Positions 3,355 through 39,656 are shown, counted from the stretch's first letter. The stretch is 64,000 nucleotides of DNA from Cenarchaeum sp. (GCA_965242695.1 CBDESU010000002.1:864001-928000); one strand, 5' to 3'. A program made the numbers and translations. The notes: generated from the letters alone by a model not told the origin.

Positions 3355-3757
3355 TCAGTCCCTGTCCCGCTTGAGGGTCCTCTTGGCGGCCTTTGAGAAC
3401 TCGGCCAGGATGTCGTCGAGCTCCTTTAGCGACTCGATGGTGCACCCGTCGGCGCGGTCGGCCAGTATCTTCATGTCGATCTCGACCGATCTTATGTGCT
3501 CCGACAGCACGTTCCTTACGTCGTCGGGCCTCCTCAGGTATTTTGCCGCCGGCAGGTACGTCGTGTCGAACCTGTGGCTTATGACGCGTATGTGGCCGTC
3601 CTTTGAGAGGCTGCGTATGGCGCCGGTGACGGCGGCCTTGGTGGGCCGCTTGCCCTGCACGGTGATCTTGCCAAAGGGGTCGCGCCTCGAGCCGCCCTTT
3701 TTCACGCCGCCCTCGCTCTTGATCAGCGCGAACACGGCCTTTTCGAGATCGTTCAAC
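3355..3757 (-). CDS. Hypothetical protein, possible winged-helix (start uncertain)
   Basis: 3' part of ORF 3355..4242 reads as protein (LNDLEKAVFALIKSEGG...AIRSLSKDGHIRV). The 5' part overlaps the gene on the opposite strand. Confidence 0.5.
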
Positions 3758-3921
3758 GCGGGCCGGACGCCGCCGACCCCTATGAACCGTTGCGCCGCCC
3801 CGGCCGCGGCGCGGCGGTCTCCGATGCAAGCACGGCGGGCAGGTCTTATATGCCAAGAAGGGGCCACGCCGGTAATGACAGCGAGTGGCGTCAGAATGCC
3901 CTCGCGGCTTTTTTGCAGGCC

Positions 3922-4755
3922 ATGAACCTCGCGGCATTTGCCCTCGCGGCGACCCTCCCCGCGCTGGTCCTGATCCCGCTCAACTTCGACTCCATCCACG
4001 GGTACTATGCGTACAGCATACCGGTTGCGGGCGCCACCGTAGACATATACAGCATCGTCTACGATACGGTGGACGACGACGGGTACTACATAGAACCGCA
4101 GTACCATTTCAACCGCACGCGTGTGACCGAGCACGTGGGAACCATCATGGGCCTCCCCTTTATGATCGCAAGCGTAGAGCCCGTGGGCAACGGGACGATC
4201 AGGGTGGATTTTGCAGACAAGAACTACACGATATACAGCCACGACGGATCAACGTACAGGGTGGCGCCCCCGTTCTCGCACAGCGAGGTGATCGGGGTCA
4301 ACCAGACCTTTGTCGCGCTGTGCTCAAACTACAGGTCTGAACGGTACAACGACCACAGCTCGACGGGGCTCGTGATCTACCAGTACAGGGGGATCGAAAC
4401 GCACACGATCACAGAGGTGGAGCAGTTCGTGCCCGCCACGGAATACGGCAAGGACGGCGCGACAACCATGCGGCTACGTGGTGACAGCGCGCACGCAGTA
4501 CGCACCATAGAGCTGTCGTCGCCCAAGGAAGTGCAGGTATACAAGTTTTTGTCAATGTCTTCGTACACGGACGGCAAGATGCGATGCGACTATCCGCAGG
4601 TGATCGAGCACACGGTCGACTCGATGCGTGTTGACACTGCCAACCTCAGGGCCGCCCTGCAGGAATGGACAGAGAAGAGATCCGCCTATTTTGGGTGGAA
4701 GGATCCTGCTAGATCCAAGGCCTTTTACGATGTGCTGTACGAGTGGTTCAGGTAA
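3922..4755 (+). CDS. Hypothetical secreted/membrane-anchored protein
   Basis: Hydrophobic N-terminus MNLAAFALAATLPALVLIPL followed by a polar beta-rich body. Confidence 0.7.
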   Translation: MNLAAFALAATLPALVLIPLNFDSIHGYYAYSIPVAGATVDIYSIVYDTVDDDGYYIEPQYHFNRTRVTEHVGTIMGLPFMIASVEPVGNGTIRVDFADKNYTIYSHDGSTYRVAPPFSHSEVIGVNQTFVALCSNYRSERYNDHSSTGLVIYQYRGIETHTITEVEQFVPATEYGKDGATTMRLRGDSAHAVRTIELSSPKEVQVYKFLSMSSYTDGKMRCDYPQVIEHTVDSMRVDTANLRAALQEWTEKRSAYFGWKDPARSKAFYDVLYEWFR

Positions 4756-9811: not shown

Positions 9812-10798
9812 ATGGCCAGGTACGTGCGGCGCCTGCAGCGCATCGGCAGCAGCACCATGGTGTCGCTGCCAAAGGCGTGGGTCGATGCGAACGGGCTTGC
9901 CAAGAACGACGAGGTCGAGGTGCAGACGGCGCGCAGCTCGGTGACGGTGGTGCCCGGCGCGGGCAGGCGGCCTGCGAGGGAGATCGACATAACGTACCCG
10001 CTGCCGCCGGACGAGAACGTGGCGGCCGACCTGACCGGCGCGTACCTGCTCGGGTACGACACGATACGCATCAGGGGCGAGGGGCCGATCCCGGCGGGCG
10101 AGCGCGAAAAGATCCGCGCGTCCCTGCGCAGGCTCGCCGGCATGGAGATCGTGGAGGAGGACTCGGCAGAGGTCGCCGTCCAGTTCATGCTCGATGCGGC
10201 CGCGGTGAACCCGCAAAAGATACTCCGGCAGATGGGGCGCATAGTGCAGGGCATGTACGCGGACACGCTCGCCGGGATGGCCGCCGGGGCAAAGCGCAGG
10301 TCTGACCTGCGCGCGATGGCCGACCGCGACGACGAGGTCGACCGGCAGTACTTTCTGCTCGTGAGGCTCATACGCAGCGCCGTGGCGGGGGGGAGGCCGG
10401 TCGGCGCGTTCGACCTAGAGGTGATAGACATACTCGACTACAGGGTGGCCGCAAACCTGCTGGAGGGGGCGGGCGACGCCGTGGTGGAGCTTGCGGCGGC
10501 GGTCCACGCGTCGGCGATCCCGCCGCCGGGGCTCAGGGAGCTGCACTCGGCCGCCTCGGGTCTCGAGGATGCGGGGCGGGGGGCCGTCGAGGCGTTCGTC
10601 GCAAACGACCGCCAGCGCGCCGTCGAGGCGATAGTGCGGCACAGGGAGTTTGCCGAAGGCGTGCGCGGGATAAAGGAGAGCCTGGAGGGCGGATCGGCCG
10701 ACGTGCCGGCCGGATACCTGGATATCGTGTTTGCGCTCGAGCGCGCGGGCCGGGCCTGGGCCGACATTGCCGACCTCGTAAAGCCGGTGTACTCGTAG
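9812..10798 (+). CDS. phoU: AbrB-domain phosphate uptake regulator PhoU
   Basis: RRLQRIGSSTMVSLPKAW AbrB N-terminus; AYLLGYD; DRDDEVDRQYFLLVR; ERxxxxxADIAD. Confidence 0.9.
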   Translation: MARYVRRLQRIGSSTMVSLPKAWVDANGLAKNDEVEVQTARSSVTVVPGAGRRPAREIDITYPLPPDENVAADLTGAYLLGYDTIRIRGEGPIPAGEREKIRASLRRLAGMEIVEEDSAEVAVQFMLDAAAVNPQKILRQMGRIVQGMYADTLAGMAAGAKRRSDLRAMADRDDEVDRQYFLLVRLIRSAVAGGRPVGAFDLEVIDILDYRVAANLLEGAGDAVVELAAAVHASAIPPPGLRELHSAASGLEDAGRGAVEAFVANDRQRAVEAIVRHREFAEGVRGIKESLEGGSADVPAGYLDIVFALERAGRAWADIADLVKPVYS

Positions 10799-11174: not shown

Positions 11175-11419
11175 GTCGCCGGCCCCTCCAATGTCCGCCC
11201 TCGGTGTCTCTCGGCCCTCTCGACCGACTCGACCTTCGTGTACGAGTCGCCGGCCCCTCCAATGTCCGCCCTCGGTGTCTCTCGGCCCTCTCGACCGACT
11301 CGACCTTCGTGTACGAGTCGCCGGCCCCTCCAATGTCCGCCCTCGGTGTCTCTCGGCCCTCTCGACCGACTCGACCTTCGTGTACGAGTCGCCGGCCCCT
11401 CCAATGTCCGCCCTCGGTG
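11175..11419. repeat. Perfect 71-bp tandem repeat, 3 copies + 32-bp partial
   Basis: Units start at 11175, 11246, 11317 and 11388 and are identical. A CGACTCG/CGAGTCG stem spans each unit junction. Confidence 0.97.
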
Positions 11420-11488
11420 ACTCCTAGACCGGCCAAGGTCGGATGGACCAAGGCACGATGAGCTGTGTTGACTGTGAGGATATTTTTA

Positions 11489-11560
11489 CGCCTAGTTGAC
11501 CAACTAAAATACCGCAAAGACAGGGCTGGACTGCGCTATACAGATTGGCCAAGGCGTATA
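11489..11560 (+). promoter_or_regulatory. Conserved upstream element of GHKL gene 1 (homologous to 16532-16603)
   Basis: CGCCTAGTTGACC, then 48 nt later TATACAGATTG.CCAA...GTATA, with the same spacing in both copies. Confidence 0.55.
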
Positions 11561-13302
11561 TACCGGCACGAGGCCAGCCCCGCCCATGCCACGGCTCGCA
11601 TCCGCCCATGCGCCCGGCCGGCCGGCCGCGCCGGCCAAGGCCGGCGGGAAGATTGACATAACGCCGGACAAGTCGCTGATTCGGAAACTGGGGTCCACAG
11701 GGTACCGTACATACGAGGCCCTGTCCGAGCTCATCGACAACTCGATCGATGCCCGTATGCAGGGGCCGATCAACATCCGCATCACGCTAGACTACGCCGG
11801 TCAGTCCATTGCAGTCTCCGACGACGGTGTTGGAATGGGGCTCGGCGAGCTTAGGGACGCAATGACCATAGCCAAGGAGACCGACTATCCGCGCGGCAAG
11901 AAGCTCGGAATGTTTGGCCTGGGCATGAAGACGGCATGCTCGTTTCTGGGCAAGACGTTTGCAATAACCACGTCAAAGCCCGACGCCGATCTAGAGTATG
12001 CAATAGAGTACGACGAGGGCGCATGGGAGAAGAGGGCCTCGGCCGGCTGGAAGAACTTTCCATACTCGACACAGGCGAAGATCGACAAGCGCGCCCATGG
12101 GACAAGCATCGAGATTTCAAAACTCAAGGTCCCGCTCTACCAAGAGCAGACCACCATCTTTAAAAAACGCTTCGGGGAACGATACGCAGAGTACATGCGT
12201 GACAAGCAGGCGGCCATCACAATCAACAGCGTCAGCTGCGCGCCCGTGTCCCCCGTGCTTGAGAAGGGCAGCGCCAAGCACTTCAAGGTGAAGACGTCCG
12301 CGGGCATGTTGCCTGCGCAAATCGGACTGCTGCTCCGCCGATCAGTGGTGGGCAGCTACGGCATAGACCTCTACTACAAGGGCAGGCTGATCAAGGCGCA
12401 CACCAGGTTTGGGATCAGGGATCATCCGGAGGTGGCCAAGGTTGTCGGCAGGATATCGCTCGATCACGTACCTGTAAACTTTTACAAGACAGGCTACATC
12501 ACGGAGTCACGCGAATACAAGGAGGCAGAGGACGCGTTCAGGAGCCATCCCGCAGTAAGGGGCATGATCAAGGGGCAAAGGAGCGGCGCGCCGCGGGCGC
12601 CGGCCGACTCGCAGGCCACATACGACTACATTCTGGGCCGCACGGCCGAGCCCCCGCGCATAGATCCCAGGCTTGGTCGCGACGCGTCGAAAAGGCTCCT
12701 CGACTCCCTGAAGCCGCTCGATTTTGCGACGAGCGGGCTAAGCGTGAGGGTCGGGTATGACGGTGCGGGCGGCGACCTGTACACGGCGACCTTGAAGGGC
12801 AAGCGCCTAGAAGTGACCATAAACACGCGCAGCCCCCTCTTTGCCACGGTCAAGAACCCCCTCTATCTTGTGGCGATGGCCGTGACAGAGGCCAAGGCAA
12901 TGGCGGCCGGCGGAGCCGGCATGATGTCCTTTTTCAAGGAGAGAAACAGGGCCATGTCGTCGCTCATAGGCGGCTGGTCACGCGGCGCCGCTGCCGGCGC
13001 CGGGCGCCCCGCCGCCCCGCCCGATGCGAAAGAGTACCGCCTTGCGTCCGACTTGGAAGACCTGTACTCTTTCCTTAACATGCACTACCCCTTCAAGTTC
13101 ACGTTCAGCGGCCTGTCTACCCTGCTAGACTATACCCACAACGCGCTCGGGTACCCCTTCTACTCACTCTACACGGAAAAGTCCCAGGGGGGATACCTAC
13201 TCGATGCGATTTTCAAGTGCGGGGGCGACTATGCGCCGCTCCTTGATCCCGTCGGCGACGATCTCAAGATGTTCTTCAACCTGGCAAGCTCCAAGCCCAT
13301 AG

Positions 13303-14759
13303 TATTGTTCACGTCATAAAGATTTGACTTATTTTACCCAAACTATTTGACGCGGTCAGGGTCTGCAAACAGTGGGATGTATTTTTTGGGCGACTTCGGT
13401 ACCGGTTGATCGCCGTATTTGCGGATTATATAATTCAACGCTCCTTCTTTACCATGTCGATTTTTTCTTCGCTTTATGTTTCGCCTGTATGCATACGGAC
13501 TTCTCAATAGATATTTCCAAAGGTTGAGGCGAGGGTTTAACATAGTGTTAAGGTATCTTAGTGTCTTCCGCCTCTTTTTTGTAATACTTGAAAAATATTC
13601 ATCATAGAACTCGGCAAGCTTGGTTTGGCGCCAATTTGCCTCCTGTAGACTCAAGTATGACGACCCCGGTGGAAGATAAAATATGATTATCATGTTTTCC
13701 ATCTTGTCAATGAAATCCTTTAGTTTCTTGGACTTGTGCCATCCTGCGTTGTCAGAGATCACCACGATTGGGCCGAATTCTTCGACCGCTTTTTTCAAAA
13801 GCTTGATGACACCATCAGTGTTGGCTGCGTCGTACATAACGTTGCAATGCCGAGCAACGCCATTTTTGTCGGGCTCGGTGGTCAGTCCCAGTGCGACACA
13901 CTTGGAACCCTCTCCAATGTAGGGCACCTTGACGGCCTCGCCCGGGGGCGACCAGTAGATCAGCTTGCCGTTCGCGTCTTGGTATACTATCATCTCGTCC
14001 TCGATCACCACTAGATAACCCTCTTTTTTGAGCGCCAAAATCTGGGGTAGGACCACTTTGCGCCAGTAGTAGACCTCGTGCGGTTCGGGCGATCCAACGT
14101 GTGCCTTCTCTGCCTTCTTTCCGGTCAGGCCTTCCTCGTGCAGTATGCGCAGGGCCTGCCTTTTGGACATTCTTAACTTGCACAGTTTGTACATTTCAGT
14201 GATAAGCTTGCGGGGGGTAATACGACCGCCGTTTTTCTTGATATTTTTGATCGCCTTTTTGACCAGTTTGCGATCATAAACGTGCGGTCGTCCCTGCCCG
14301 CCCTTATCGTACAGCCCGTTGACCCCCTTCAAGGTGAATCTTTTCATGTAATTTCTGACCGAACCTGTGGATACGCTTAGCTCTTCCGCGGTCATTTTGC
14401 AGGCCTTTGTTTTTTTCATTTTTGATTTTTTGATCTTTACGCGAACAGAATTAACAACTAGCATTCTTTTTAGAGCCCTTGGATCTTTCTCCACCTTGAT
14501 TGCTCTTTGGAGATTTCCTAACCTCATTGCCCGCCGACGCTCAGCGGGGTCTATTATATCTAGGCCTGCGTCCAAATGCCTAGAATGAAAAATTGAGTAT
14601 CAGCTTTTTAGTATAAATGATTAAAATCTATGGAATCAATTGATATCAAATCAAGTCCTGGGTGGAGTGTATGCAACCACATCGTCTGCAATCGATCGTT
14701 AATGGTTGATGGTTGGCTTGCTTCACAATTAGTGTCAAAACTTTATGTCCTAAACAATA
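13303..14759 (-). mobile_element. IS630-family insertion sequence (coordinates include both TA copies)
   Basis: 26-bp terminal IRs 13303-13328 and 14734-14759 (22/26 match), TA duplication, AT-rich relative to flanks. Confidence 0.92.
13343..14575 (-). CDS. IS630 family DDE transposase
   Basis: HTH N-terminus, IEDE, SDNAGWHKS, LPPGSSYLSLQEANW. Confidence 0.9.
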   Translation of the reverse strand: MDAGLDIIDPAERRRAMRLGNLQRAIKVEKDPRALKRMLVVNSVRVKIKKSKMKKTKACKMTAEELSVSTGSVRNYMKRFTLKGVNGLYDKGGQGRPHVYDRKLVKKAIKNIKKNGGRITPRKLITEMYKLCKLRMSKRQALRILHEEGLTGKKAEKAHVGSPEPHEVYYWRKVVLPQILALKKEGYLVVIEDEMIVYQDANGKLIYWSPPGEAVKVPYIGEGSKCVALGLTTEPDKNGVARHCNVMYDAANTDGVIKLLKKAVEEFGPIVVISDNAGWHKSKKLKDFIDKMENMIIIFYLPPGSSYLSLQEANWRQTKLAEFYDEYFSSITKKRRKTLRYLNTMLNPRLNLWKYLLRSPYAYRRNIKRRKNRHGKEGALNYIIRKYGDQPVPKSPKKYIPLFADPDRVK

Positions 14760-15004
14760 GTAGTGCGGGAATTCCCGCCAAGCGAGATAGCGGCGCCGCT
14801 GGCCCCGCCCGCACGGGCGTGGATGGACCTGTTCCGAGAGGCATCGCGCTACCGCATGCCCCTTGCCACCGAGGACCTGTCGTCCACGCTGGAGGGGCTG
14901 CGGGACAGGCGCCTGCTGGCCAAGGGCGATCTTCTGCCCGTCCTGAAGCGCCGCGGCAAGCAGGACATGGCAATGTCTATTATCGAGCAGGTGTTTGCGG
15001 CGCA

Positions 15005-16084
15005 ATGAAGCGCGTCTACGGCGGCATTCTAAACGCCGCATTCTTGCAGGGTGCGGCTTCGAGGGCGGGGCTCAGGGACGCATCGCTGCTTGAAGATTTT
15101 GTGATGGACTTTGAGCTGCACAGCATCATCGGCGGCAAGCTTGCCGTATGCCTGCGCGGCGGCATGGCCACCCCCTTCTACATCGATCGGGGGGCGGTGC
15201 GCCTCAGCAAGGACATCGATCTGTTCGTATTCGAGGAGTTGGAGGTTACTAGGGCGAAAGTGCGCGAGCTGGCAGCCGAACAGGCCGCTAGCGGCGTGGT
15301 GATCGAAGAGCAGGCGGCCAGCCCCAAGCTTGCCCACCTGCCGCTGCTACAGTACCGCATAAGGTACGACTCTGTCTCCGGCACCACCCGCGACATAAAG
15401 GCCGACCTTTTCTGCAGCCCCGAGCTGAAGGACATCCCCGTCACGACCCGCAAAAGCGGAGCCGATTTGAGGCACTTTGCGACAAGACACGAGGTGGTTC
15501 TGCTTGACCACCACGCACTGATTGCCGACAAGCTTACCTCTCTGTCAGAAAAGACGGTGGGGTACAGCGCTGCTAGGAGGAGGGAGTTCCACAAGCAGGT
15601 GTACGATATCGCCTCGCTCTTGCGGGCCCTGTCCCGCATTGATCCTCGAAAATTGATCGAAGCGTACAACCTTCTTGCGACCAGAAAGGGCGCGCCTTCG
15701 CCCGAAACGCCCGCGGGGCAATTTTCCCCCGCTGCAATAGTTGAGGATGTTGTGGAGACTATACTCCGGCTGTCCGACCTTGACAACGGTCGTCCTCTGC
15801 AGGGCTTTGCCAAGGGCTACGCCGAATTTCAGATGTACTATCTCGGTGACACGCCGCGTCACCCCTCGACGCAGTACACAGATGCGCTGCTGATAGCGTT
15901 GTTTGCAAAGCGACTGCTGGGAATGCTTAAGAACGAGCTCAGTCCAGAGTCAATGCAGGACCGCCACGACCAGACAGTTCGCATCATATTATCGCTGAAG
16001 GAACCGCATCTGGAAAAGGCGACCGCCAAGATTGTCAAGGACGCTATCAAAGCCAACGATCCGCTGCCCAATCGGTATGCCTGA
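15005..16084 (+). CDS. AbiEii/AbiGii-type nucleotidyltransferase toxin
   Basis: LRGGMA...RLSKDIDL, ADKL, KQVYDI; ATGA overlap with the stop of GHKL copy 1. Confidence 0.85.
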   Translation: MKRVYGGILNAAFLQGAASRAGLRDASLLEDFVMDFELHSIIGGKLAVCLRGGMATPFYIDRGAVRLSKDIDLFVFEELEVTRAKVRELAAEQAASGVVIEEQAASPKLAHLPLLQYRIRYDSVSGTTRDIKADLFCSPELKDIPVTTRKSGADLRHFATRHEVVLLDHHALIADKLTSLSEKTVGYSAARRREFHKQVYDIASLLRALSRIDPRKLIEAYNLLATRKGAPSPETPAGQFSPAAIVEDVVETILRLSDLDNGRPLQGFAKGYAEFQMYYLGDTPRHPSTQYTDALLIALFAKRLLGMLKNELSPESMQDRHDQTVRIILSLKEPHLEKATAKIVKDAIKANDPLPNRYA

Positions 16085-16531
16085 ATGCATCCCTCCGTTG
16101 CCTACCTGACCCACTTGATTAGAACCGAATGACAATATGGCCACAACACGAGCGCCTGCTTTTGCCGCGCACTGCCACATGTCGCCGCGCACTGCCGCCT
16201 GTCGGGGTCTTGCATTGGCGACGTGGACACGCAGCACAGCCGGCGCATTCCGAAACCAACGCCGCAGAACGAGCCAGTAAACGGGACATTTGTTGGACGG
16301 TATGGCAGTGCATGATCGCAGAGTTGCCCGATCGACGACGGGCGGATCAGGCGTGCCATTCTCGAGGCCCCGTGCCATCCGTCCTGCAACTCCCTGCCTG
16401 CGCAGATGCGCGACGGTTCGCGTCCTTGAGCATGCAGCCGGGCGCCTCGACGTCATAGCCGAGCGGTTGCCTGTCCTGCGAGGACTGCAACACGGCAGTC
16501 TGCATGCCACGCGTCCCGACACGGCATCATG

Positions 16532-16603
16532 CGCCTAGTTGACCGACCATGATGCTGCAAAAAATGGACAAAAATGCACTATACAGATTGTCCAAACTGT
16601 ATA
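16532..16603 (+). promoter_or_regulatory. Conserved upstream element of GHKL gene 2 with TATACAG-N10-CTGTATA inverted repeat
   Basis: Matches 11489-11560; perfect 7-bp IR at 16580-16586/16597-16603. Confidence 0.55.
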
Positions 16604-16791
16604 GGGCCGTTCACTGTACCGCCGTGCAGGACAGGCCTAGCACGACTGCGAGCGGCCCCTCCCGGCGGAGTCGTCGCTAGGCCTTGGCCGGGCCGTTGCT
16701 ATAGTGTTTTGTCAACTTGTAAATGCAAAATTTCCTTAAAATTGCACCAATGGTTGATAAACCATATATGCTAGAGCTGGCGCGCCCGGCC

Positions 16792-18825
16792 ATGGGCGGC
16801 AAAGAGAGGGCCGCCCCTGCGCGCACCGCCAGCAGGCGCCCCGCCAAGCCGCCGCCAGGGCCTGCGGTTTCGCAGAAAGCGGGCCGGCCGGCCGCCAGCG
16901 GGCGCCTTGACATTACACCGGACAAGTCGCTGATCAGAAAGCTCGGCTCGACCGGCTACCGCACCTACGATGCGATATCCGAGCTGGTCGACAACTCGAT
17001 TGATGCGCGGGGTGGGCGCAAAGTCGTCGTCAGAGTGTCTATCGACTACGCTGGCGGCTCAATAGGCGTCGAGGACGACGGATTGGGCATGGGCCTTGCC
17101 GAGCTAAAGGATGCCATGACGGTGGCCAAGGAGTCGGCGCACCCGCGAGGCAGGCGCCTCGGCATGTTTGGACTCGGCATGAAGACGGCCTGCTCGTTTC
17201 TGGGACGCTCGTTCTCGGTCGCCACATCAAAGGCCGGCTCCGGCACCGAGTACATCGTCGAGTACGACGAAGACGACTGGGAGGGAAACGAGTCGGTCGG
17301 ATGGCGGAGCTTTCCGTATACGGCGCGCAAAAAATCGGATCCGGCCGCCCACGGCACGCGCGTGCTCATAGGCAAGGTGCGCGTTCCGGTCTACGCAGAG
17401 CAGACCACCGTCTTCAAGAAGCGGCTGGGGGAAAGATACGCCGGGTACGTGCAGCAGGGGCAGGCCGAAATCCGCATCAACAGTGTCGTGTGCGAGCCGG
17501 TGTCGCACAAGCTGGCAGACGGCAGCGTCCGCGAGTTTGAGATCAAGACGTCGGCCGGGCCGATGCCGGCATGGATCGGCATGCTCGAGCGCAGATCGGT
17601 GGTGGGGAGCTACGGAATAGACCTGTACTACAGGAACCGCCTGATCAAGCTGCACTCAAAGTTCGGCATCAGGCGCCACCCCGACATGGCGCGGATCGTC
17701 GGCCGGATCTCGCTCGACCACGTTCCCATAAACTTCCACAAGACGGACTTTATCGTAGAGTCGGCCGAGTATGCCGAGGCCGAGAGGGCGTTCAGGGAGC
17801 ATCCCGCAGTGAAGGAGGCGGCGAAGGCGCAAAGGCAGGGCAGCGGCGTCGAGGATGCCGCTCCCGCCGCCGGGGTGTACGACTACCTGCTTGGCAGGAC
17901 GGACGACCCTGCCCCAATCGCACTGCGGATGGGGCGGGCCGCATCGCAACGGCTGCTCGGCGCCCTGCGCCCCGCTAGGTTCAGGGTGGGCGGCAGGACG
18001 GTGCGCATCGACTATGCGGACTCGGGCGGGGCCCCGTATGCAGTAGAGATGCGCGGCTCCGCAGTCAGGGTCACCGTCAACAGGAAAAGCCGGTTGTTCT
18101 CGGCGGTGGCCAACCCCTTGTACCTTGTCGCCCTTGCCGTGGCGGAGGCCAGGGCGCTGTGCACCGCCGAGGGGGACATGGGAGACTTTCTAGGCGAGAG
18201 GTCGCGAATCTGGACCTGCTCCATGGAGGGATGGATTCCCGCGAAGCAAGAGGCAGTAGCAGGGAGCCGGCGGCAGCGGCGCAGGGCCGCGCTCGACGGG
18301 TACCGCCTTTCCCGCCGACTCGAAGGCCTCGGGTCGTTCCTGGAGAGGCGGTACGAGTTTGTCTTCGAGTTCAGCGGCCTCAGCACCCTAGAAGCGTACA
18401 CGCACAACGTGCTTGGCACCCCAATCTATTCTCTGTACACCGAAAAGGGCCAGGCCAAGTATCTGCGCGACTTGGTGATGGAGCACGACAACGCCATTGT
18501 CCCCGTTGTTGGGCCGAACGGTGACGGTATGGGGACGCTGCTTGATGCGAACCGCGGCCGACCGTTTGTGGCCATACGAGAATACGCCAAGGGGAGCCTC
18601 CGGCGCGGCCTGGCCGCGCCGGCAAAGGCGTGGATGGACCTGCTCAGGGAGGTGCGCTACCACCACATGCCGATGCTGGATGAGGATCTTGCCGCGATCC
18701 TGCTGCGGCTCAGGGAGCGAGGACTAGCGAGTATATCCGAGCTGGAGGCCGTGGCCAGAAGGCGCGGCAAGATCTCCGACCTGCGCGAGTTCGCCGACGA
18801 TGTGTTCGGCCGGGAGCTGGGCTAG
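16792..18825 (+). CDS. MORC-like GHKL ATPase with AbiEi-like C-terminus, copy 2 (intact; start could be 16768)
   Basis: SELVDNSIDA, DDGLGM, GMFGLGMKTA, HGT; C-terminal FSGLSTL...AAPAKAWMDLL...ARRRGK. Confidence 0.88.
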   Translation: MGGKERAAPARTASRRPAKPPPGPAVSQKAGRPAASGRLDITPDKSLIRKLGSTGYRTYDAISELVDNSIDARGGRKVVVRVSIDYAGGSIGVEDDGLGMGLAELKDAMTVAKESAHPRGRRLGMFGLGMKTACSFLGRSFSVATSKAGSGTEYIVEYDEDDWEGNESVGWRSFPYTARKKSDPAAHGTRVLIGKVRVPVYAEQTTVFKKRLGERYAGYVQQGQAEIRINSVVCEPVSHKLADGSVREFEIKTSAGPMPAWIGMLERRSVVGSYGIDLYYRNRLIKLHSKFGIRRHPDMARIVGRISLDHVPINFHKTDFIVESAEYAEAERAFREHPAVKEAAKAQRQGSGVEDAAPAAGVYDYLLGRTDDPAPIALRMGRAASQRLLGALRPARFRVGGRTVRIDYADSGGAPYAVEMRGSAVRVTVNRKSRLFSAVANPLYLVALAVAEARALCTAEGDMGDFLGERSRIWTCSMEGWIPAKQEAVAGSRRQRRRAALDGYRLSRRLEGLGSFLERRYEFVFEFSGLSTLEAYTHNVLGTPIYSLYTEKGQAKYLRDLVMEHDNAIVPVVGPNGDGMGTLLDANRGRPFVAIREYAKGSLRRGLAAPAKAWMDLLREVRYHHMPMLDEDLAAILLRLRERGLASISELEAVARRRGKISDLREFADDVFGRELG

Positions 18826-30525: not shown

Positions 30526-30729
30526 CTGGCGACATGCGACACAGGGGAGGTCAAGGCGCACGAGCAGGCAAAGGCATGGGGGCACGATCCCATATTCCCG
30601 CCGGAGCCAAAGCCGATCGAGTCTCCGGACGACGGCCTCAACCTGTCGGGGCTCCAAACGATGCAGCTGATGGAAGGCAACATCCCGGACGGGTACGAGC
30701 TGGTCAAGGTTGAAGATGTTGAAAAATAA
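30526..30729 (+). CDS. Small candidate antitoxin (CTG start) consisting mostly of the shared 48-aa module
   Basis: KAWGHDP...ELVKVE is identical to the tails of paralogs A and B; its stop overlaps the PIN gene start. Confidence 0.5.
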   Translation: MATCDTGEVKAHEQAKAWGHDPIFPPEPKPIESPDDGLNLSGLQTMQLMEGNIPDGYELVKVEDVEK

Positions 30730-31324
30730 CGGTAAAAGGCCCTCCGTCTATCCCGAGAGCAGTGTGGTATTTGCGGCGCTCGTACCTACCGATGCCCACC
30801 ACCGGGATGTGGTCAAGATGATAGACGAGATACAGCGGAGAGGATTCCGCATAATTGTCTCGCCGCTGACCCTCATGGAGACGTTCGCATCGATCCGAAG
30901 AAAGTCCGCAACATCGAACATGTGCAGGCTGGGGAGCGAAGATGAGAGGGCGGGCGTGGAAGCTCACGTGCAGAACACCGTCAAGGATGCGCGTGGACGT
31001 TTGAGCAGGTTGGTCAAACAAGGCATCATAGAAATCGTAGAACCGGAGAATTGGTCGCCCGACCTCTTACTGCTGTACGCCAAGTTGCTCGAGCATGCGG
31101 GATATGTCCTGCCTGTGGACAAGGGCCGCCCCTTTAGGCACCGCGCGGTCGGGTCGTACGACTGGCTGCACTTCGCGCTGGCAAAGTACCTGGGTGCGGT
31201 CGCGATCCTCACGACCGACGTGGCGTTTGCCGACATTGCGGGCAACGACGACGAGTTCGGGCACATCCTGATACAGCTGGCGTCCGAGCCGCTCGTCGGC
31301 CCGCTTGCCGCCGGCGCCGCGTGA
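30716..31324 (+). CDS. PIN-domain (VapC-like) nuclease
   Basis: VYPESSV, VSPLTLME, YDWLHFALA, ILTTDVAF. Confidence 0.85.
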   Translation: MLKNNGKRPSVYPESSVVFAALVPTDAHHRDVVKMIDEIQRRGFRIIVSPLTLMETFASIRRKSATSNMCRLGSEDERAGVEAHVQNTVKDARGRLSRLVKQGIIEIVEPENWSPDLLLLYAKLLEHAGYVLPVDKGRPFRHRAVGSYDWLHFALAKYLGAVAILTTDVAFADIAGNDDEFGHILIQLASEPLVGPLAAGAA

Positions 31325-32111: not shown

Positions 32112-33263
32112 CTACGGGCCGCCGCCGGATTCCCCCTTTGCAAGCGCGTCGAGCGCCTCCTCGAACAGCTCCTGCTCGGCCTCGCCCGTCCCGTCGACGG
32201 CAATCCTCTCGACGCGGGTGAAGGCCCCCTTCCTGCGCCGAAAGTAGTACAGGCCGAGGTCGTCGGGGCCTATGATCCCGTCGTGGACCATGTTCAGCAC
32301 CCCGTTGACGACATAGTCGCTGTGCGTTGCAAGCACCAGGTCCACGCGCCGCGACAGCGCAGCTCGGACCATCCCCTTGGCGAACCTCAGCTGCACGAGC
32401 GGCTCTATCCCAGCCTCCGGCTCCTCGACTGCTAGGGCGCCGCCGGGACGCACGCCGTGCAGGGCGGCCACGACGGGGAGCGCTGAGAGCACGCCGGATC
32501 CCGCCAGGCCTATCTCTGCCTCAAAGCCGGACTGGTCCCTGTACAGCAGGGCCGCGGGGCCGCCAGCGGCGGACACGGCGAGCGATCCGCCGAAAACGCC
32601 CGAGAACGCGGCCCTGGCGTCTTCGCCGAGCCCGCCCGAAAGCGCCCCGATCACGGCGCCGTAGAACTGCCCGAGGTGCTCGGGCATTTGCCCTGCAAGG
32701 CGCAGCTGCGGCGCGCCGCCCGGGGCGCATCCCGGCCCCGTTCCGCCGGCGCCATCCGGGGCGGAATTGAACACGTCTTTTGCCTGCAGAGTCGCCAGCA
32801 GCGACTGGATTGTCCCGGCCCTGCCGGCGGGGACGTACATGCTGCCAGCCGGCGCGCCGCCCGGGGCGGCGGCGCGCGGCGGCGCGGAGAGCGCGGCGCC
32901 GTCATCTGCCGCGCCCCTGTCAAAGTCTAGCCTTATCGGTGCCTCGCAGCCCGCAATCTCGAGCCGGCCGGAAGGCTTTGCATGAGTGACCACGTCGCGC
33001 CGCCTGATGCCTGCGCTCCTGAGGATGGCGTTCGACATGGCCGCGCCCGGCGGCCTGTCCCTGCCGTCGCCGGGTCCGCCGGCGCCGGCGGGATGCTGCC
33101 GCCCGGCGGCCGCCGGGTCGAGCCGGCGCACCCCGTGCATGATCCTGGCCGCGATTGACTTGCCCGAGTTGTTTGGGCCTATGAACACGCTAAGCCGGTG
33201 GCGGCCGATTGCGGCTCGGTCTATCGGCCCGATGTTCTCGAGTCTGATCTCTTCAAACTTTAT
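32112..33263 (-). CDS. ABC/AAA_15-21-like ATPase (defence-associated type); possible ATA start
   Basis: IRLENIGPI, GPNNSGKS, AGSGV signature, VEEPEAGIEP, ATHSDY. Confidence 0.82.
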   Translation of the reverse strand: MKFEEIRLENIGPIDRAAIGRHRLSVFIGPNNSGKSIAARIMHGVRRLDPAAAGRQHPAGAGGPGDGRDRPPGAAMSNAILRSAGIRRRDVVTHAKPSGRLEIAGCEAPIRLDFDRGAADDGAALSAPPRAAAPGGAPAGSMYVPAGRAGTIQSLLATLQAKDVFNSAPDGAGGTGPGCAPGGAPQLRLAGQMPEHLGQFYGAVIGALSGGLGEDARAAFSGVFGGSLAVSAAGGPAALLYRDQSGFEAEIGLAGSGVLSALPVVAALHGVRPGGALAVEEPEAGIEPLVQLRFAKGMVRAALSRRVDLVLATHSDYVVNGVLNMVHDGIIGPDDLGLYYFRRRKGAFTRVERIAVDGTGEAEQELFEEALDALAKGESGGGP

Positions 33264-33665
33264 GCCGCTCGGCGGCGGATGTGCGTTATATTAACTGCTT
33301 ACGGGGCTTGAGGTGCTAGGGGGTGGTTGACCGGACGCCACATGGACGGACGGTCATCTTATACATGGCCGCGGGCGCCTCCCGGACGTTGTGGCACGTT
33401 CAATATGGTCACCTACGGGCTCCGCAGCCGTGAAATTTGCCCACTATCACACCGTACAGGTCGACCATGCAATGCACCGTGTGAAGGCCCACTACAGGAC
33501 AGCCATGTCAGCACAGACAAGACGGATGGATCGCCTGAGACAAGCCGCTGACGGGCAAGCCTGGCTTGTGCTACCGCCGCCCGGCTAGGCGTCAATAGGC
33601 CTAGGCGTGAAGTGGATGGCGCCCTAATACTTTTAACACGACGGTTGCGGCCTCAAAATCAGAGC

Positions 33666-36410
33666 ATGGCGACGCCAGAGGTTGCGGCTAGGCGCAACAT
33701 AGACAAGATGCTTGAACAATCAGGGTGGGTTGTACAGGACTACGAGAACCTAGACTTTGGAACCAATACAGGCGTGGCTGTCAGAGAGTACCCGCTTGGT
33801 AGGGAGGCGTGCGACTACGCCCTCTTTATAGGCCGGCACCCTGTTGGCGTAGTAGAAGCAAAGCCTGAGGGTTGGACGCTACTGGGCGTCACCTCGCAGT
33901 CCGACAAGTACCTGAAAGGACTAAGCGAGAAATTTCCTCAGGCACCACGGAATCCTCCATTCTCTTATGAAACGACCGGGATACAAACCATATTTACAGA
34001 CAGGCGTGATCCCGACTATCGTTCTAGAGATGTCTTCACATTTCATAGGCCAGAGGTTATGGAGCGCTGGCTTATGGAGGAAAAAACCATGCGAGCAAGA
34101 CTCGAAGAAATCCCTCAGTTAGACTATCCAAATTTGTGGGACTGCCAGTCCCGAGCCGTTAAAAACTTGGAAAAATCGTTTTCTGAAAACAGACAGCGTG
34201 CCTTGATCCAGATGGCCACGGGTAGCGGCAAGACGTTCACGGCAGTTACGTTTGCTTACAGACTAATTAAACATGCGGGGGCGAGGAAGATACTATTCTT
34301 AGTAGATCGAAATAATCTGGGACAGCAGGCGTTGAGTGAATTTGCGCGGTATGATACACCAGATGACGGAAGAAAATTTACCGAGCTATACAACGTTCAA
34401 CATTTACAAGGACAAATAATCGACCCAGTTTCTAAGGTTGTAATATCGACTGTTCAGAGAATGTACTCAATTCTAAAGGGCGAAAAAGAATTCGATGAAA
34501 CATCTGAAACATTCTCTCAGTTTGACCAAAACATGAACGATGATCCCGTAGTAGTAGAATACAATCCCCACATTCCCATTGGGGAGTTCGATTTTATTAT
34601 AATCGACGAGTGTCATAGAGGAATATACAACAAGTGGAAGCAAGTGCTAGACTACTTTGATTCGTTTTTAATAGGCCTAACCGCCACGCCGTCAAAAAGT
34701 ACCGTGGGATTTTTTGAGAACAATCAAGTAATGGCTTATACACATGAGCGGGCTGTGGCTGATGGTGTAAACGTCGGGTATCATGTGTATAAAATTCGGA
34801 CGCAAATAACGCGGGATGGAGGTAAAATAGAAGCGGGTGAAGTTGTAGAGAAACGTGACAAACTGACACGAAAACAGTGGCAAGAAAGGCTAGACACCGA
34901 TATGATCTACGAACCTTCTAGGCTAGACAGGGATGTAGTGGCGACGGATCAAATACGACTTGTCATTAAGACTTTCAAAGATCGTCTGCACGAGATATTT
35001 CCTGGTAGGGAGGTGGTTCCAAAGACATTAATATTTGCAAAAGACGATTCTCATGCAGAGGATATCACTAGAATTGCCAGGGAGGTTTTTGGGAAAGGAA
35101 ATGAATTTTGCCAAAAAATAACCTACAAAACAACTGGAGACAAGCCAGAAAACATTATTGCAAGCTTTCGAAACTTTTATCGTCCACGCATCGCGGTTAC
35201 CGTCGACATGATGGCTACAGGAACCGACATTCGACCATTAGAATGCATTATATTCATGAGAGATGTAAAATCCAAAATCTACTTTGATCAGATGAAAGGG
35301 CGAGGAAGTAGGGTGATCCGCGCAGATGATCTGCTAGCAGTGACTCCCGATGCAAAATCAAAAGATCACTATGTGATTGTAGATGCGGTGGGGGTATGTG
35401 AACACTCCTTGTCCGACACGCATTCTTTAAGAAGGAGCAACGCCTCGCTCAAAGAGCTCATGCAAGCAGTGTCAGAAGGGCGCTCTGATGAAGATGCTGT
35501 ATCATCGCTGGCAGACAAGTTGGCAAGGCTTGACCGTTCCTTGGACACAAAAGCAAAAGATGAAATTGAGGCGGCGTCTAGTGGTGTAACTCTGTCCCAA
35601 ATGGCAAACAGGTTACTCGATGGAATAGACCCAGATGTACAAGCCGAGTACGCAAGGAAAAAGTTTATGACATCTTCCCCTACTGATGACCAGCTTGAAC
35701 GAGCCAGTAACGAGATAATAAAGGATGTATGTCGGATGTTCGATGACGCTCATCTCCGCCAAACCATACTAGATGTTAAGGCCCGTCGGGAGATGGTCAT
35801 TGACTCGGATTCCATTGATAATCTGGTTGCGGCTGGATTCGATCGCGAAGCCAATGATATCAGCAACAAAGTCAGGGAAAGCTTTGAAGGGTTTTTGGCT
35901 AAAAACAAGGCTGAACTTGTAGCGTTGCAAATACTGCACTCCCAGCCTTACAGAATCCGAGAGCTAACGTTTAAAGACATTAAGACACTGGCTGCAAAAA
36001 TCGAAGAACCACCCTTCCGAATGGACACTAGGCTGCTCTGGAGTGCTTACAAAAATCTTGAGAAGTCAAAAACAAAAAATAACTCCCATGTCACATTGAC
36101 CGACCTAATTTCTATAGTTCGGTTTGCCATAGGTGAGGAGAAAGTCCTTATTCCGTTTGGTGAGAAAGTAGATCGAAAGTTTTCCAATTGGATGGAAAAT
36201 CAAGGATCAGCTGGTAGAAAGTTTACAAGTGAACAAAAAGACTGGCTTATTATGATGAAAAATCACATAGCCGCGTCAATTGTTGCTACAGTAGAAGACA
36301 TGGATGATGTTCCATTTTCCCAAAAAGGTGGACGCATTAAGCTGCACGATTTGTTTGGCGATGATTATAAACAGATTCTAGAGGAGTTGAACCAGGAGCT
36401 GATTAGTTAA
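33666..36410 (+). CDS. hsdR: Type I restriction enzyme R subunit
   Basis: DY...VEAK nuclease motif, MATGSGKT, DECHR, LTATP, QMKGRG. Confidence 0.95.
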   Translation: MATPEVAARRNIDKMLEQSGWVVQDYENLDFGTNTGVAVREYPLGREACDYALFIGRHPVGVVEAKPEGWTLLGVTSQSDKYLKGLSEKFPQAPRNPPFSYETTGIQTIFTDRRDPDYRSRDVFTFHRPEVMERWLMEEKTMRARLEEIPQLDYPNLWDCQSRAVKNLEKSFSENRQRALIQMATGSGKTFTAVTFAYRLIKHAGARKILFLVDRNNLGQQALSEFARYDTPDDGRKFTELYNVQHLQGQIIDPVSKVVISTVQRMYSILKGEKEFDETSETFSQFDQNMNDDPVVVEYNPHIPIGEFDFIIIDECHRGIYNKWKQVLDYFDSFLIGLTATPSKSTVGFFENNQVMAYTHERAVADGVNVGYHVYKIRTQITRDGGKIEAGEVVEKRDKLTRKQWQERLDTDMIYEPSRLDRDVVATDQIRLVIKTFKDRLHEIFPGREVVPKTLIFAKDDSHAEDITRIAREVFGKGNEFCQKITYKTTGDKPENIIASFRNFYRPRIAVTVDMMATGTDIRPLECIIFMRDVKSKIYFDQMKGRGSRVIRADDLLAVTPDAKSKDHYVIVDAVGVCEHSLSDTHSLRRSNASLKELMQAVSEGRSDEDAVSSLADKLARLDRSLDTKAKDEIEAASSGVTLSQMANRLLDGIDPDVQAEYARKKFMTSSPTDDQLERASNEIIKDVCRMFDDAHLRQTILDVKARREMVIDSDSIDNLVAAGFDREANDISNKVRESFEGFLAKNKAELVALQILHSQPYRIRELTFKDIKTLAAKIEEPPFRMDTRLLWSAYKNLEKSKTKNNSHVTLTDLISIVRFAIGEEKVLIPFGEKVDRKFSNWMENQGSAGRKFTSEQKDWLIMMKNHIAASIVATVEDMDDVPFSQKGGRIKLHDLFGDDYKQILEELNQELIS

Positions 36411-37795
36411 TGAACCAATCTCTTGTTAAAGAAAAACTTCCTGACGGGTGGGTCAAAAGCAGTCTTTTTAGCTGTGTTGAAATTTTAGATCACAAACGCA
36501 TTCCGATAAATGCCAATCAGCGTAAGCAAAGAGCTGGCCCTATACCATACTATGGCGCAACAGGCCAGGTAGGTTGGATAGATGATTATTTATTTAATGA
36601 AGAATTGGTGTTACTAGGGGAAGACGGAGCACCGTTTTTAGACTTTTTTAAAAATAAAGCATATTTAATTTCTGGAAAAAGCTGGGTAAACAACCATGCT
36701 CATGTTTTAAAGGGCATAAGTGGGATCGTCTTGAACAAATACCTGTGCCATTATTTAAATTGGTTTAATTATAAAGAATATGTTACGGGAACAACCAGAC
36801 TAAAACTAAACCAAACCAGTATGAAAAGCATTCCTGTTTTACTGCCACCTTTCTCTGAGCAAAAACAAATCGTCAGCAAACTTGAATCAGTCTTTACACG
36901 GATTGACGTAGTTAAGAACATTTTGGAGACCTCCAAAACATCTGCTCAACATGCGCAACAGTCTGTACTTGCTGTTGCATTTGAAGGTAAATTGGTCTCG
37001 CAAGACCCAAAAGATCCGCCAGCGTCTGCATTAATAAATAAAATAGGTGCGAGCCAACCTACTTATCGCCTCCGTCAATCCAAAACATGTAATGCGCTGT
37101 CACGAAATAACTTCTCAAACGTAAGTGTACAGCTTCCAGATGGTTGGACACACGCAACATTAGAACAGATAGCAATGATAACTCCTGGTCAATCACCACC
37201 GTCTTCAAGCTATAACCAGAAACGCTCTGGCATCCCATTTTTTCAAGGTAAAACTAATTTTGGTGAGCTACACCCGACACCGCAACACTGGTGCACAAAC
37301 CCTAGAAAGATCGCTGTGAAAAATGACATTTTAATTTCAGTCAGAGCACCTGTTGGGCCTACAAATCTAGCCAAGGAAACATGTTGTATTGGAAGAGGTT
37401 TATCTGGAATCAGGGTCACTGATAAAATTCATTTCAAATATATATTGTACCATATACGTGCGATCGAAAAAAGCATTGCGGCGAGTGGAACTGGAACTAC
37501 TTTTAAAGCCATTAGTAACAAACAATTAAAATCTATTGTGCTAAACATTGCACCCTACAATGAACAAAAACGTATTGTTGTTAAACTCGACTCAATTTTT
37601 AAAAGCATAGGCATATTATTGACACATGTTGAATCTACAATAATTTACCTCAATGCACTCAAAAGCAGTACGTTAAAATTGGCTTTTGATGGTCAACTGG
37701 TTTCCCAAGATGTTAACACCAAACCTGCAACAATTTTGTTTAAAAAAATTAATTCGAAAAGCAATTACTTAAAAAGTGTAAATTCTAAGGAGTGA
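36410..37795 (+). CDS. hsdS: Type I R-M specificity subunit (two TRDs)
   Basis: LPDGW x2, PPFSEQKQIV / APYNEQKRIV, AFEGKLVSQDP. Confidence 0.95.
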   Translation: MNQSLVKEKLPDGWVKSSLFSCVEILDHKRIPINANQRKQRAGPIPYYGATGQVGWIDDYLFNEELVLLGEDGAPFLDFFKNKAYLISGKSWVNNHAHVLKGISGIVLNKYLCHYLNWFNYKEYVTGTTRLKLNQTSMKSIPVLLPPFSEQKQIVSKLESVFTRIDVVKNILETSKTSAQHAQQSVLAVAFEGKLVSQDPKDPPASALINKIGASQPTYRLRQSKTCNALSRNNFSNVSVQLPDGWTHATLEQIAMITPGQSPPSSSYNQKRSGIPFFQGKTNFGELHPTPQHWCTNPRKIAVKNDILISVRAPVGPTNLAKETCCIGRGLSGIRVTDKIHFKYILYHIRAIEKSIAASGTGTTFKAISNKQLKSIVLNIAPYNEQKRIVVKLDSIFKSIGILLTHVESTIIYLNALKSSTLKLAFDGQLVSQDVNTKPATILFKKINSKSNYLKSVNSKE

Positions 37796-37800
37796 CAAAA

Positions 37801-39288: not shown

Positions 39289-39656
39289 CTTGTATATGTT
39301 TTATACGACATGCCGTGAATACTTCCTGGTCTGTATCACTACTATTCAGCTCGGGACCATCATGCAAAATAAATTTACAGTTAATTTTCACTACAGATGT
39401 TCTTATAATTATTTGTTCAAAGATGTTTTGAAATTTAATACCAATATACTACTGGACAATATTAGAATCGTTACTTGTATAACTTTTTTCTTATGCCAGC
39501 AAGCCACTTACACAATATCCTTGTTAAAGAGATATTCTGTATTTTTGATACGTAGAGTAGTGTCGCAACAAAGCCACAGTATGGGATATTCGCCACCGTT
39601 ATCACACGTATGTCATTATCGCCTTGGACGGTGGTTGGGAATGGTGAGTGATTAAC

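Follow-up and report, generated by a model that had tools for sequence, protein, structure and literature searches.

An AbiEii-type transferase gene preceded by a MORC-like ATPase gene

What keeps a nucleotidyltransferase of the AbiEii family in check when the gene in front of it encodes a MORC-like ATPase in place of the usual winged helix-turn-helix (wHTH) antitoxin? The question is raised by positions 11586-18825 of a 64,000-nucleotide stretch of Cenarchaeum sp. DNA (GCA_965242695.1 CBDESU010000002.1:864001-928000, referred to here as the window), where a preliminary description had proposed a new defence or toxin-antitoxin system made of two paralogous GHKL ATPase genes with an AbiEi-like tail, the first of them coupled to the transferase gene. 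On balance, we think it probable that the locus is a toxin-antitoxin (abortive-infection) module of the AbiE/MenAT type whose antitoxin carries a MORC ATPase where the wHTH would be. Four genes, not three, lie in this segment, with the transferase gene between the two copies of the ATPase-tail gene. Judged by homology, these copies are paralogs in a conserved two-gene module that occurs mainly in Nitrosopumilaceae.

The transferase gene is intact and encodes 359 aa at 15005..16084 on the plus strand. It belongs to the AbiEii/MenT type (DUF1814), as had been proposed, with 46.6 bits against Pfam AbiEii (cut-off 22.5) and matches to six PADLOC AbiEii models. Across 32-33 homologs, the GG pair, R-x-S-x-D-x-D, the K of D-K, one further Gly, and K-x-x-Y-D are invariant, and the window transferase keeps all of them (G52, G53, R66, S68, D70, D72, K176, K197, and D201). 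Its structural model (predicted local distance difference test score, pLDDT, 86.8; predicted template modelling score 0.87) has MenT3/TglT as its best Foldseek match (E 1.8e-6, prob 1.00), followed by MenT4, JHP933, and MenT1; a search of PDB sequences with the transferase profile gave no match at E <= 0.1. MenT3/TglT has been reported to be phosphorylated on the regulatory residue S78, while D82 is catalytic (PMC7205606). In the present family, the conserved Ser sits two residues before the first catalytic Asp and four before the second, which is the S78-to-D82 spacing. We take this Ser to occupy the position of the MenT3 phospho-acceptor site, a correspondence of spacing rather than of a residue-by-residue alignment, and residue 80 of MenT3 is presumably also an Asp.

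Domain architecture of the fusion proteins

Copy 2 is an intact 700-codon open frame at 16723..18825 on the plus strand (in the database, the gene is called as P0001, with its start at 16750 and 691 aa). Invariant Bergerat-fold residues, a structural model, and fold matches divide it into a GHKL domain (~16966-17358), an S5-like domain (~17536-17778), a zincin-like middle domain without an HExxH motif (~17905-18240), and a tail resembling DUF6577 and the C-terminal domain (CTD) of AbiEi (~18310-18807). In copy 1, also on the plus strand, an N-terminal piece of 573 codons (11586..13304, assigned by its reading frame, Pfam matches, and identity to the homolog P0025) carries the GHKL ATPase domain (~11709-12104), the S5-like domain (~12270-12503), the middle domain, and, from ~13035, the ~90 residues with which the DUF6577/AbiEi-CTD-like tail begins. 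Both copies contain the tail motif LAxPAxAWMDL that had been read from them.

The GHKL domain first noted in the two copies scores 71.9 and 63.5 bits against Pfam HATPase_c_3 (cut-off 25). The Morc6_S5 match of the S5-like domain beside it is weak (19.7 and 23.5 bits) and does not reach the cut-off of 26.2, which several relatives pass (P0045 26.3, L045 28.1, L049 34.3, L053 37.0, and L077 41.0). The Bergerat-fold residues E78, N82, D109, G113, G138, G202, and T203 (P0001 numbering) are invariant in 20 sequences. When a family profile of 71 members was compared with PDB sequences, the best matches were the eukaryotic proteins MORC4 (5.6e-16), MORC3 (4.5e-12), and MORC2 (3.7e-9), with weaker ones to PMS1 (5e-6), Topo VI-B (6e-6), and MutL (2e-4). 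These comparisons support the assignment of the N-terminal half as a predicted MORC-like GHKL+S5 ATPase. In MORC, MutL, and Topo VI-B, GHKL-S5 modules form dimers when they bind ATP and act as clamps on DNA.

A model of the C-terminal 307 residues of copy 2 (17902-18822), built with a 71-row alignment (pLDDT 90.2), shows two domains connected by a linker of low confidence. The middle domain (model residues 2-113) resembles zincin-like proteases, with Spartan 6mdx at Z 7.3 and Wss1, YbeY, ArdC, CapP, and PprI at Z 3.7-5.6. These scores are of a size that the aligner labels "common", and an HExxH motif is missing, so we call the domain zincin-like only tentatively. The GHKL-S5 head was also seen with other C-termini (L046, L047, and L053); it carries sigma-70 region 4 and a DnaA-type HTH in Candidate Phyla Radiation bacteria and a PEP-utilising mobile domain in metagenome-assembled genomes of Clostridia, and in L046 its gene adjoins Eco47II and C5-methylase genes.

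The tail and its relation to AbiEi

To what extent the tail is AbiEi-like was approached through sequence profiles and through its predicted fold. Distant members of the family match Pfam DUF6577 (PF20217) over their C-terminal ~170 residues, at profile positions ~28-200 of 204; P0045 (30.8 bits), P0073 (28.9), P0105 (28.8), L043 (35.1), and P0158 (41.1) exceed the cut-off of 27.8 bits, and P0049 lies just under it at 27.3. When DUF6577 was searched in 301 genomes of the phylum, nine genomes had matches at E <= 0.001, among them seven stand-alone open frames of 193-306 aa. Five of these seven have an N-terminal HTH, four with an AbiEi_4 match, and four are directly followed by a Pfam AbiEii gene, while a fifth is followed by a match to the transferase profile. 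Between the fusion family and the seven stand-alone proteins, hhalign gave 98.7% probability (E 4e-16, 162 columns), pairing R-E-Y and P-E-K-A-W-x-D-L in the fusions with E-R and P-E-R-x-W-x-D-L in the stand-alone proteins, and the fusion-family profile itself matches stand-alone members at 1e-7 to 3e-20.

The fold comparison leads to the same family. With the tail model (residues 137-302) as query, an exhaustive structure aligner ranked Streptococcus agalactiae AbiEi (6y8q) first of 48,161 chains, at Z 8.3, a value in the range that the aligner calls common for the best matches of unrelated models, with a root-mean-square deviation of 3.3 A over 125 residues; the matched chain residues, 56-195, form the AbiEi C-terminal domain. 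Rv2827c (1zel) followed at Z 6.0, and several nucleotidyltransferase folds were found at Z ~6. Since Z 7-8 is common for best matches, the independent sequence evidence matters here. Together, the hhalign and fold results uphold the original suggestion of an AbiEi-like tail, and they support it as the likely equivalent of the C-terminal domain with which AbiEi antitoxins neutralise their toxin. In AbiEi, this domain is reported to be sufficient for antitoxicity, the wHTH being needed only for repression and autoregulation (PMC3985639).

The place of the fusions among DUF6577 proteins was addressed with a tail-only profile (36 sequences, 175 positions), which was searched against 1.84 billion representatives. 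It matched 902 proteins at E <= 0.001, 274 at 1e-10 or below, and 44 at 1e-30 or below. Among the best 150 of the 902, 28 are at least 600 aa long and carry the domain at the C-terminus, and most of the others are 220-311 aa long with the domain after ~60 residues. In a Pfam scan of 46 matches, the short proteins proved to be DUF6577, either alone or behind an N-terminal HTH (AbiEi_4, DeoR, TrmB, HTH_11, or IclR), and the GHKL fusions among those scanned are P0178, P0158, and P0138. Two further proteins end in DUF6577 behind other heads, P0249 (698 aa) with a weak match to a type I S-subunit and P0256 (609 aa) with an unrecognised head of 400 residues.

A tree of 177 tail domains from a quick maximum-likelihood run (unrooted; every third of P0001-P0120 kept and matches covering <120 profile positions dropped) placed 58 of the 62 long proteins in one 70-row clade, with a Shimodaira-Hasegawa-like approximate likelihood ratio of 93, below the starred level. 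Eight short rows lie inside this clade, and the seven that were scanned have no Pfam match to an HTH or to DUF6577, so that these rows are probably gene fragments. P0249 and P0256 fall among the stand-alone proteins, and by this placement their fusions are independent of the MORC fusion. Because the tree is unrooted, a wHTH that was replaced by a MORC module, rather than the reverse, is the parsimonious reading of the direction and not a demonstration of it. That a MORC-like ATPase stands where a wHTH would be expected, as had been supposed from the window, is supported at the level of homology and of the gene linkage described below.

Gene linkage and distribution

A word-indexed search found 160 relatives at E <= 0.001, the best 120 of which are 617-715 aa long except for three of 452-530 aa. 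Scanning one genome per species gave 80 loci, 44 with the long form (L001-L044) and 36 with another C-terminus (L045-L080). The long-form loci are almost all labelled as Nitrosopumilaceae, Nitrosopumilus, Cenarchaeum, or Nitrososphaerota, with one from Dehalococcoidia. The link between GHKL and AbiEii genes suggested by the window holds elsewhere, as a same-strand frame matching the window-transferase profile lies directly downstream in 35 of the 44 long-form loci and in none of the 36 others. Three of the 35 transferases are fragmentary (L006, L011, and L013), and three of the nine misses involve incomplete sequence or genes, with L007 and L010 cut by a contig end and L009 having a truncated ATPase gene. 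The first possible transferase start lies between -11 and +24 nt from the upstream stop in 26 of the 32 loci examined.

The genome of the window holds five paralogs of the fusion gene, three of them followed by an AbiEii match and two of them orphans. An intact pair with an ATGA overlap lies at C2:804658-807724 (L090). In the third paired copy, L088 (G000:C1:1464176-1469083), the transferase frame (3437-4579) is split by one in-frame TGA into 188 and 183 aa, and by its sequence would be either a pseudogene or read through. The L090 pair belongs to a second paralog cluster, L133 (G000:C2:803000-815000), in which a 1055-aa restriction-modification enzyme of the MmeI/Eco57I type is encoded on the other strand between the paired and the orphan ATPase-tail genes; the orphan is overlapped by a 188-aa frame that has no Pfam match.

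In a family-level sample, the gene occurs in 19 of 121 genomes and 8 of 27 genera, often in several copies; 18 loci have the transferase, five are full-length without it, and five are cut. These genomes overlap those of the one-per-species scan, and the two tallies are therefore not independent. A scan of Joint Genome Institute metagenomes with P0001 gave 599 pattern matches, none of which was confirmed. Overall, the distribution looks mobile and defence-like, being sporadic and apparently laterally mobile. In an uncultured archaeon contig (L043, 4983-8943), genes for the ATPase-tail protein, AbiEii, and an N6/N4 DNA methylase overlap successively, an arrangement that hints at a link to DNA modification.

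Comparison with known systems

The known systems closest to this arrangement are AbiE (Lactococcus lactis, Streptococcus agalactiae) and MenAT, which are classed as type IV and proposed type VII toxin-antitoxin or abortive-infection systems. In these, as in the window, the antitoxin gene comes first and overlaps the gene for a nucleotidyltransferase of the DUF1814 type. This enzyme contains motifs I-IV, with a Ser placed two residues ahead of the first catalytic Asp, and the antitoxin-side protein ends in the fold of the AbiEi C-terminal domain. The window family differs in that the N-terminal wHTH is missing and ~480 residues of GHKL ATPase, S5, and zincin-like domain stand in its place; neither Pfam, PADLOC, nor NCBIfam finds an HTH or AbiEi model in the fusion proteins, so that the wHTH by which AbiE is recognised is absent from them. 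It also differs in its frequent orphan copies and its archaeal hosts (Nitrosopumilaceae), and its members are known here from sequences alone. Also close are the stand-alone proteins with a wHTH and DUF6577, whose tail is homologous and whose neighbouring transferases belong to the same subfamily, matching the transferase profile at 4e-20 to 4e-42 (L093 and L102) and 5e-16 to 3e-14 (the others); these proteins have 220-310 aa and an N-terminal HTH (AbiEi_4, DeoR, TrmB, or IclR), whereas the window family has the MORC module.

From the side of the ATPase, the closest comparison is with the prokaryotic MORC and paraMORC proteins of restriction-modification operons, which have a GHKL+S5 module like the one predicted here and a similarly sporadic distribution. 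Helicases, nucleases, methylases, and TIR domains are the partners described for them (Iyer, Abhiman and Aravind 2008, PMC2292703). The words nucleotidyltransferase and toxin are absent from the main text of that paper; its supplement, which lists all neighbourhoods, could bear on novelty. The window family differs from these proteins in its antitoxin-type C-terminal extension and its AbiEii transferase partner. MzaB of the Mza anti-phage system shares a weak similarity in the GHKL domain (34-47 bits by PADLOC, 48.8 and 52 bits by NCBIfam), and membership of Mza was rejected, as the score is far below the 850-bit cut-off and only profile positions 2-126 of 480 match. In a Pfam scan of the neighbouring genes, we noted no further gene of the Mza system.

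Apart from this weak MzaB similarity, PADLOC recognises only the transferase, NCBIfam gives nothing near its cut-offs, and none of the Pfam models covers the architecture. Full-text literature searches for MORC, GHKL, or HATPase together with AbiEi, AbiEii, or DUF1814 returned nothing relevant, the items on MORC and AbiEii being judged by title and abstract. We found no paper that names DUF6577, and the arrangement of wHTH-DUF6577 with AbiEii is likewise unnamed. In line with the first impression that the locus matches no named system, the MORC-tail-transferase architecture is apparently undescribed, and it is of the AbiE/MenAT type by its toxin, gene order, and antitoxin C-domain, though not by a wHTH.

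A recent insertion in copy 1

The preliminary description had treated copy 1 as a continuous gene of ~655 aa, overlooking that it is interrupted after codon 573 by an IS630-type insertion sequence (IS) of 1453 bp (13305..14757, minus strand). Of two same-strand paralogs, the relationship holds (54% identity over 575 residues, E = 0), but copy 1 is not whole here. The element encodes, on its minus strand (13343-14575), a 410-aa transposase that scores 48.4 bits against Pfam DDE_3 (cut-off 28.6) and also has HTH domains; its ends are imperfect terminal inverted repeats, and it is flanked at 13303-4 and 14758-9 by a TA target duplication, which is typical of IS630 elements. Its GC content is well below that of the rest of the window, which mostly has 65-70%. 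Read on without a break, the open frame of copy 1 closes at 13319 (577 aa).

Behind the element, the C-terminal piece of copy 1 (82 codons and a stop, 14760..15008, plus strand) makes up the remaining half of the tail, in which the conserved motifs R-E-(Y/F) and P-A-x-A-W-x-D-L lie. Its stop codon (15006-15008) overlaps the ATG of the transferase gene as ATGA (15005-15008). The overlap that had suggested translational coupling is therefore real, but only these last 82 codons of copy 1 are still coupled to the transferase.

An intact, IS-free allele exists in the form of P0025, a protein of 655 aa found in the homolog search. Residues 1-572 of P0025 are 100% identical to the N-terminal piece, and residues 575-655 agree with the C-terminal piece at 80 of 81 positions, the one difference being the first codon of the fragment, a GTG that the tool translated as M where P0025 has V. 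Because the junction in P0025 (K-P-I-V-V-V-R-E-F) is known, the borders of the element and the TA target duplication are fixed. In Logan contigs from four public runs, X5 and X7 (two studies) join 13302 directly to 14758 and continue through the transferase, while those of X1 and X4 stop at the boundaries of the element, and the depth of the element is ~3-4 times that of the flanks in contigs of X1, X4, and X7. The 3.89-Mb genome contains four copies of the element at 100% identity. With four identical copies and an IS-free allele in two of four runs, the insertion is recent and polymorphic, and the IS630-type element was recently active. As the insertion lies inside the tail, it destroys copy 1's own putative antitoxin domain.

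Copy 2 and the upstream elements

No transferase gene follows copy 2, which is abutted by a NUDIX gene on the opposite strand. Close full-length orthologs of copy 2, with 74-87% identity, are present in other samples. Copies 1 and 2 share paralogous upstream elements on the plus strand. Upstream of copy 1, a putative promoter or operator at 11536..11565 consists of CTATACAGATTGGCCAA and then a TATA-like GTATATA ~25 nt before the ATG. Its first 17 nt (11536-11552) are common to the upstream regions of the two copies and occur nowhere else in the genome. The counterpart upstream of copy 2 (16579..16604) is a perfect 8-bp inverted repeat, CTATACAG-N10-CTGTATAG, which lies at or next to a TATA-like box. 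From its sequence, the shared element is a possible operator or promoter, although an HTH is missing from the proteins.

At 11175-11423, ~160 nt upstream of copy 1, a 71-nt unit is repeated in tandem (3.5 copies, 99% matches). The array was found nowhere else in the genome, apart from one 35-nt partial match on the other contig. We considered it as a regulatory or CRISPR-like feature and did not adopt this.

Proposed working of the module and alternatives

In the reading that we prefer, the tail would bind the transferase and keep it inactive, probably by inducing auto-phosphorylation on the conserved Ser. AbiEi has been reported to bind AbiEii, insert a conserved loop into its active site, and induce an inactivating auto-phosphorylation, and the same mechanism has been proposed for MenA3/MenT3 (bioRxiv 10.64898/2026.01.19.700257). 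The GHKL-S5 part would alter or withdraw this neutralisation by ATP-driven dimerisation or clamping on DNA, so that foreign DNA, or some state of the DNA, would license the transferase to block translation. Copy 2, an intact antitoxin-like orphan, may cover for the broken copy 1. We infer toxicity, neutralisation, phosphorylation, the roles of ATP and DNA, and cross-protection by copy 2 from the likeness to known systems, and the idea of the ATPase as a DNA-clamping sensor that controls the toxin is purely conjectural. In its full form, in which the MORC clamp closes on invading or abnormal DNA, switches off the neutralisation of a tRNA-targeting transferase, and so aborts infection, we regard the proposal as speculative and rather unlikely. 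A complex prediction for the L090 transferase with residues 462-639 of its partner scored 0.00 in two runs without controls, and speaks neither for nor against binding.

Several observations weigh against an AbiE/MenAT-type module. Pfam has no DUF6577 or AbiEi match for the N-terminal piece of copy 1 and copy 2 (E <= 0.1) or for P0001 (E <= 1), and no PADLOC AbiEi model matches the window proteins, so that the link to AbiEi rests on profile and fold comparisons. Of these, the aligner's Z score is of the common kind noted above, and Foldseek of the C-terminal model against the PDB returned nothing at E <= 0.001, with AbiEi 6y8q at E 0.13 (prob 0.80). Six or seven of the 44 long-form loci lack a transferase, six of them (L001, L016, L036, L037, L038, and L040) although flanking DNA is present, and in this genome copy 2 and the gene at C2:811283 are orphans; orphans this frequent mean that the ATPase-tail protein is maintained alone, which a pure antitoxin need not be. 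The transferase gene is intact although the recent insertion destroyed the tail of copy 1. If the transferase were constitutively toxic and needed its cognate antitoxin, such an insertion would be hard to survive unless copy 2 cross-protects, and the last 81 tail residues are only 39% identical between the copies. None of the 12 listed sequencing records that contain this stretch is marked as RNA, and we found no experiment on any member of the fusion family.

Because of the frequent orphans, the survival of the transferase after the loss of the tail, and the 39% tail identity, we keep two alternatives, in which the ATPase is a mere regulator or the tail is an activator. The pair could be the same toxin and antitoxin with the MORC part serving as a DNA-binding autorepressor or for local compaction, the toxin being freed by turnover of the antitoxin. 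The N-terminal domain of AbiEi is indeed reported to serve autoregulation only (PMC3985639). The two window copies share a genome-unique upstream element with an inverted repeat at or next to a TATA-like box, and the other N-terminal partners of DUF6577 are DNA-binding as well, namely various HTHs and the type I S-subunit-like region of P0249. An ATPase of ~480 residues with invariant catalytic residues would, however, be a costly substitute for a wHTH of 60 residues, and we know of no GHKL-S5 protein that acts as a sequence-specific repressor; we think this explanation improbable. If instead the tail is an activator, the two proteins would form a two-part effector, in which the MORC clamp recognises nucleic acid and the DUF6577 tail recruits or activates the transferase as a restriction-like enzyme or one that modifies RNA or DNA ends. 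Such a role would suit the intact transferase beside its destroyed cognate tail, the resemblance of the tail to nucleotidyltransferase folds (Z ~6), the DNA methylase gene right after the pair in L043, the relatives of the N-terminal module beside restriction genes (L046), and the occurrence of prokaryotic MORC and paraMORC genes mainly in restriction-modification operons (PMC2292703). On the other hand, the tail has its closest sequence relatives in the C-domains of wHTH proteins encoded upstream of AbiEii genes, and the transferase most resembles the MenT toxins and retains the Ser of R-x-S-x-D-x-D. Orphan ATPase-tail genes also do not fit an obligate two-part enzyme, and we think this explanation improbable as well.

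The locus may also be a decaying remnant in this particular genome, with copy 1 dead, copy 2 an orphan, and the transferase silent or being lost, so that it would encode nothing functional here, whatever the role of the family in other genomes. We consider this very improbable. The insertion does lie inside the tail domain, orphans are frequent, and fragmented or stop-containing transferases occur in relatives (L006, L011, and L013) and in the paralog L088 of the same genome. However, the insertion is recent and polymorphic, as its four identical copies and the IS-free allele indicate, no invariant residue is missing from the transferase or from copy 2, and the full-length orthologs of copy 2 in other samples speak against decay.

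If the proposal of a MORC clamp as DNA sensor is correct in its full form, it would give a first assigned mechanism for any prokaryotic MORC, and we know of no biochemical characterisation of these proteins. The DUF6577/AbiEi C-domain would then be a portable "toxin leash" that is placed on varied DNA-recognition modules (wHTH, MORC, and type I S-subunit-like). AbiE and MenAT are among the most widespread toxin-antitoxin or abortive-infection modules, and how they sense infection is an open question. A MORC-headed antitoxin would be a natural construct for approaching it, as sensing, ATP use, and toxin control would be joined on one chain and separable by mutation. In 2008, an accessory role in restriction was predicted for prokaryotic MORCs, which are also regarded as the ancestors of the eukaryotic MORCs of genome defence. 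The module is concentrated in ammonia-oxidising archaea, many of them labelled as sponge-derived, whose defence systems are little known, and the polymorphic insertion with a remaining paralog offers a natural test of cross-protection between paralogous antitoxins.

Neighbourhood of the locus

Directly upstream of the locus, at 9812-10798, lies a gene for a 328-aa protein in which a MazE-like antitoxin domain is fused to a PhoU domain, and an archaeal-type phosphopantothenate synthetase is encoded among the neighbouring genes; the presence of both indicates that the host is archaeal. A tRNA-linked island was considered and rejected, as the window contains no tRNA gene. At a distance of 15 kb from the locus, an island at 33612-39655 with ~38-44% GC in a genome of ~67% GC encodes type I restriction-modification, with HsdR (932 aa), HsdS (461 aa), HsdM (498 aa), and a 124-aa frame without a Pfam match. 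Just upstream of this island, on the minus strand, are genes for a PIN-domain protein (30710-31324) and an AAA_21/AAA_15 ATPase (32112-33188), which may be further defence or toxin-antitoxin genes.

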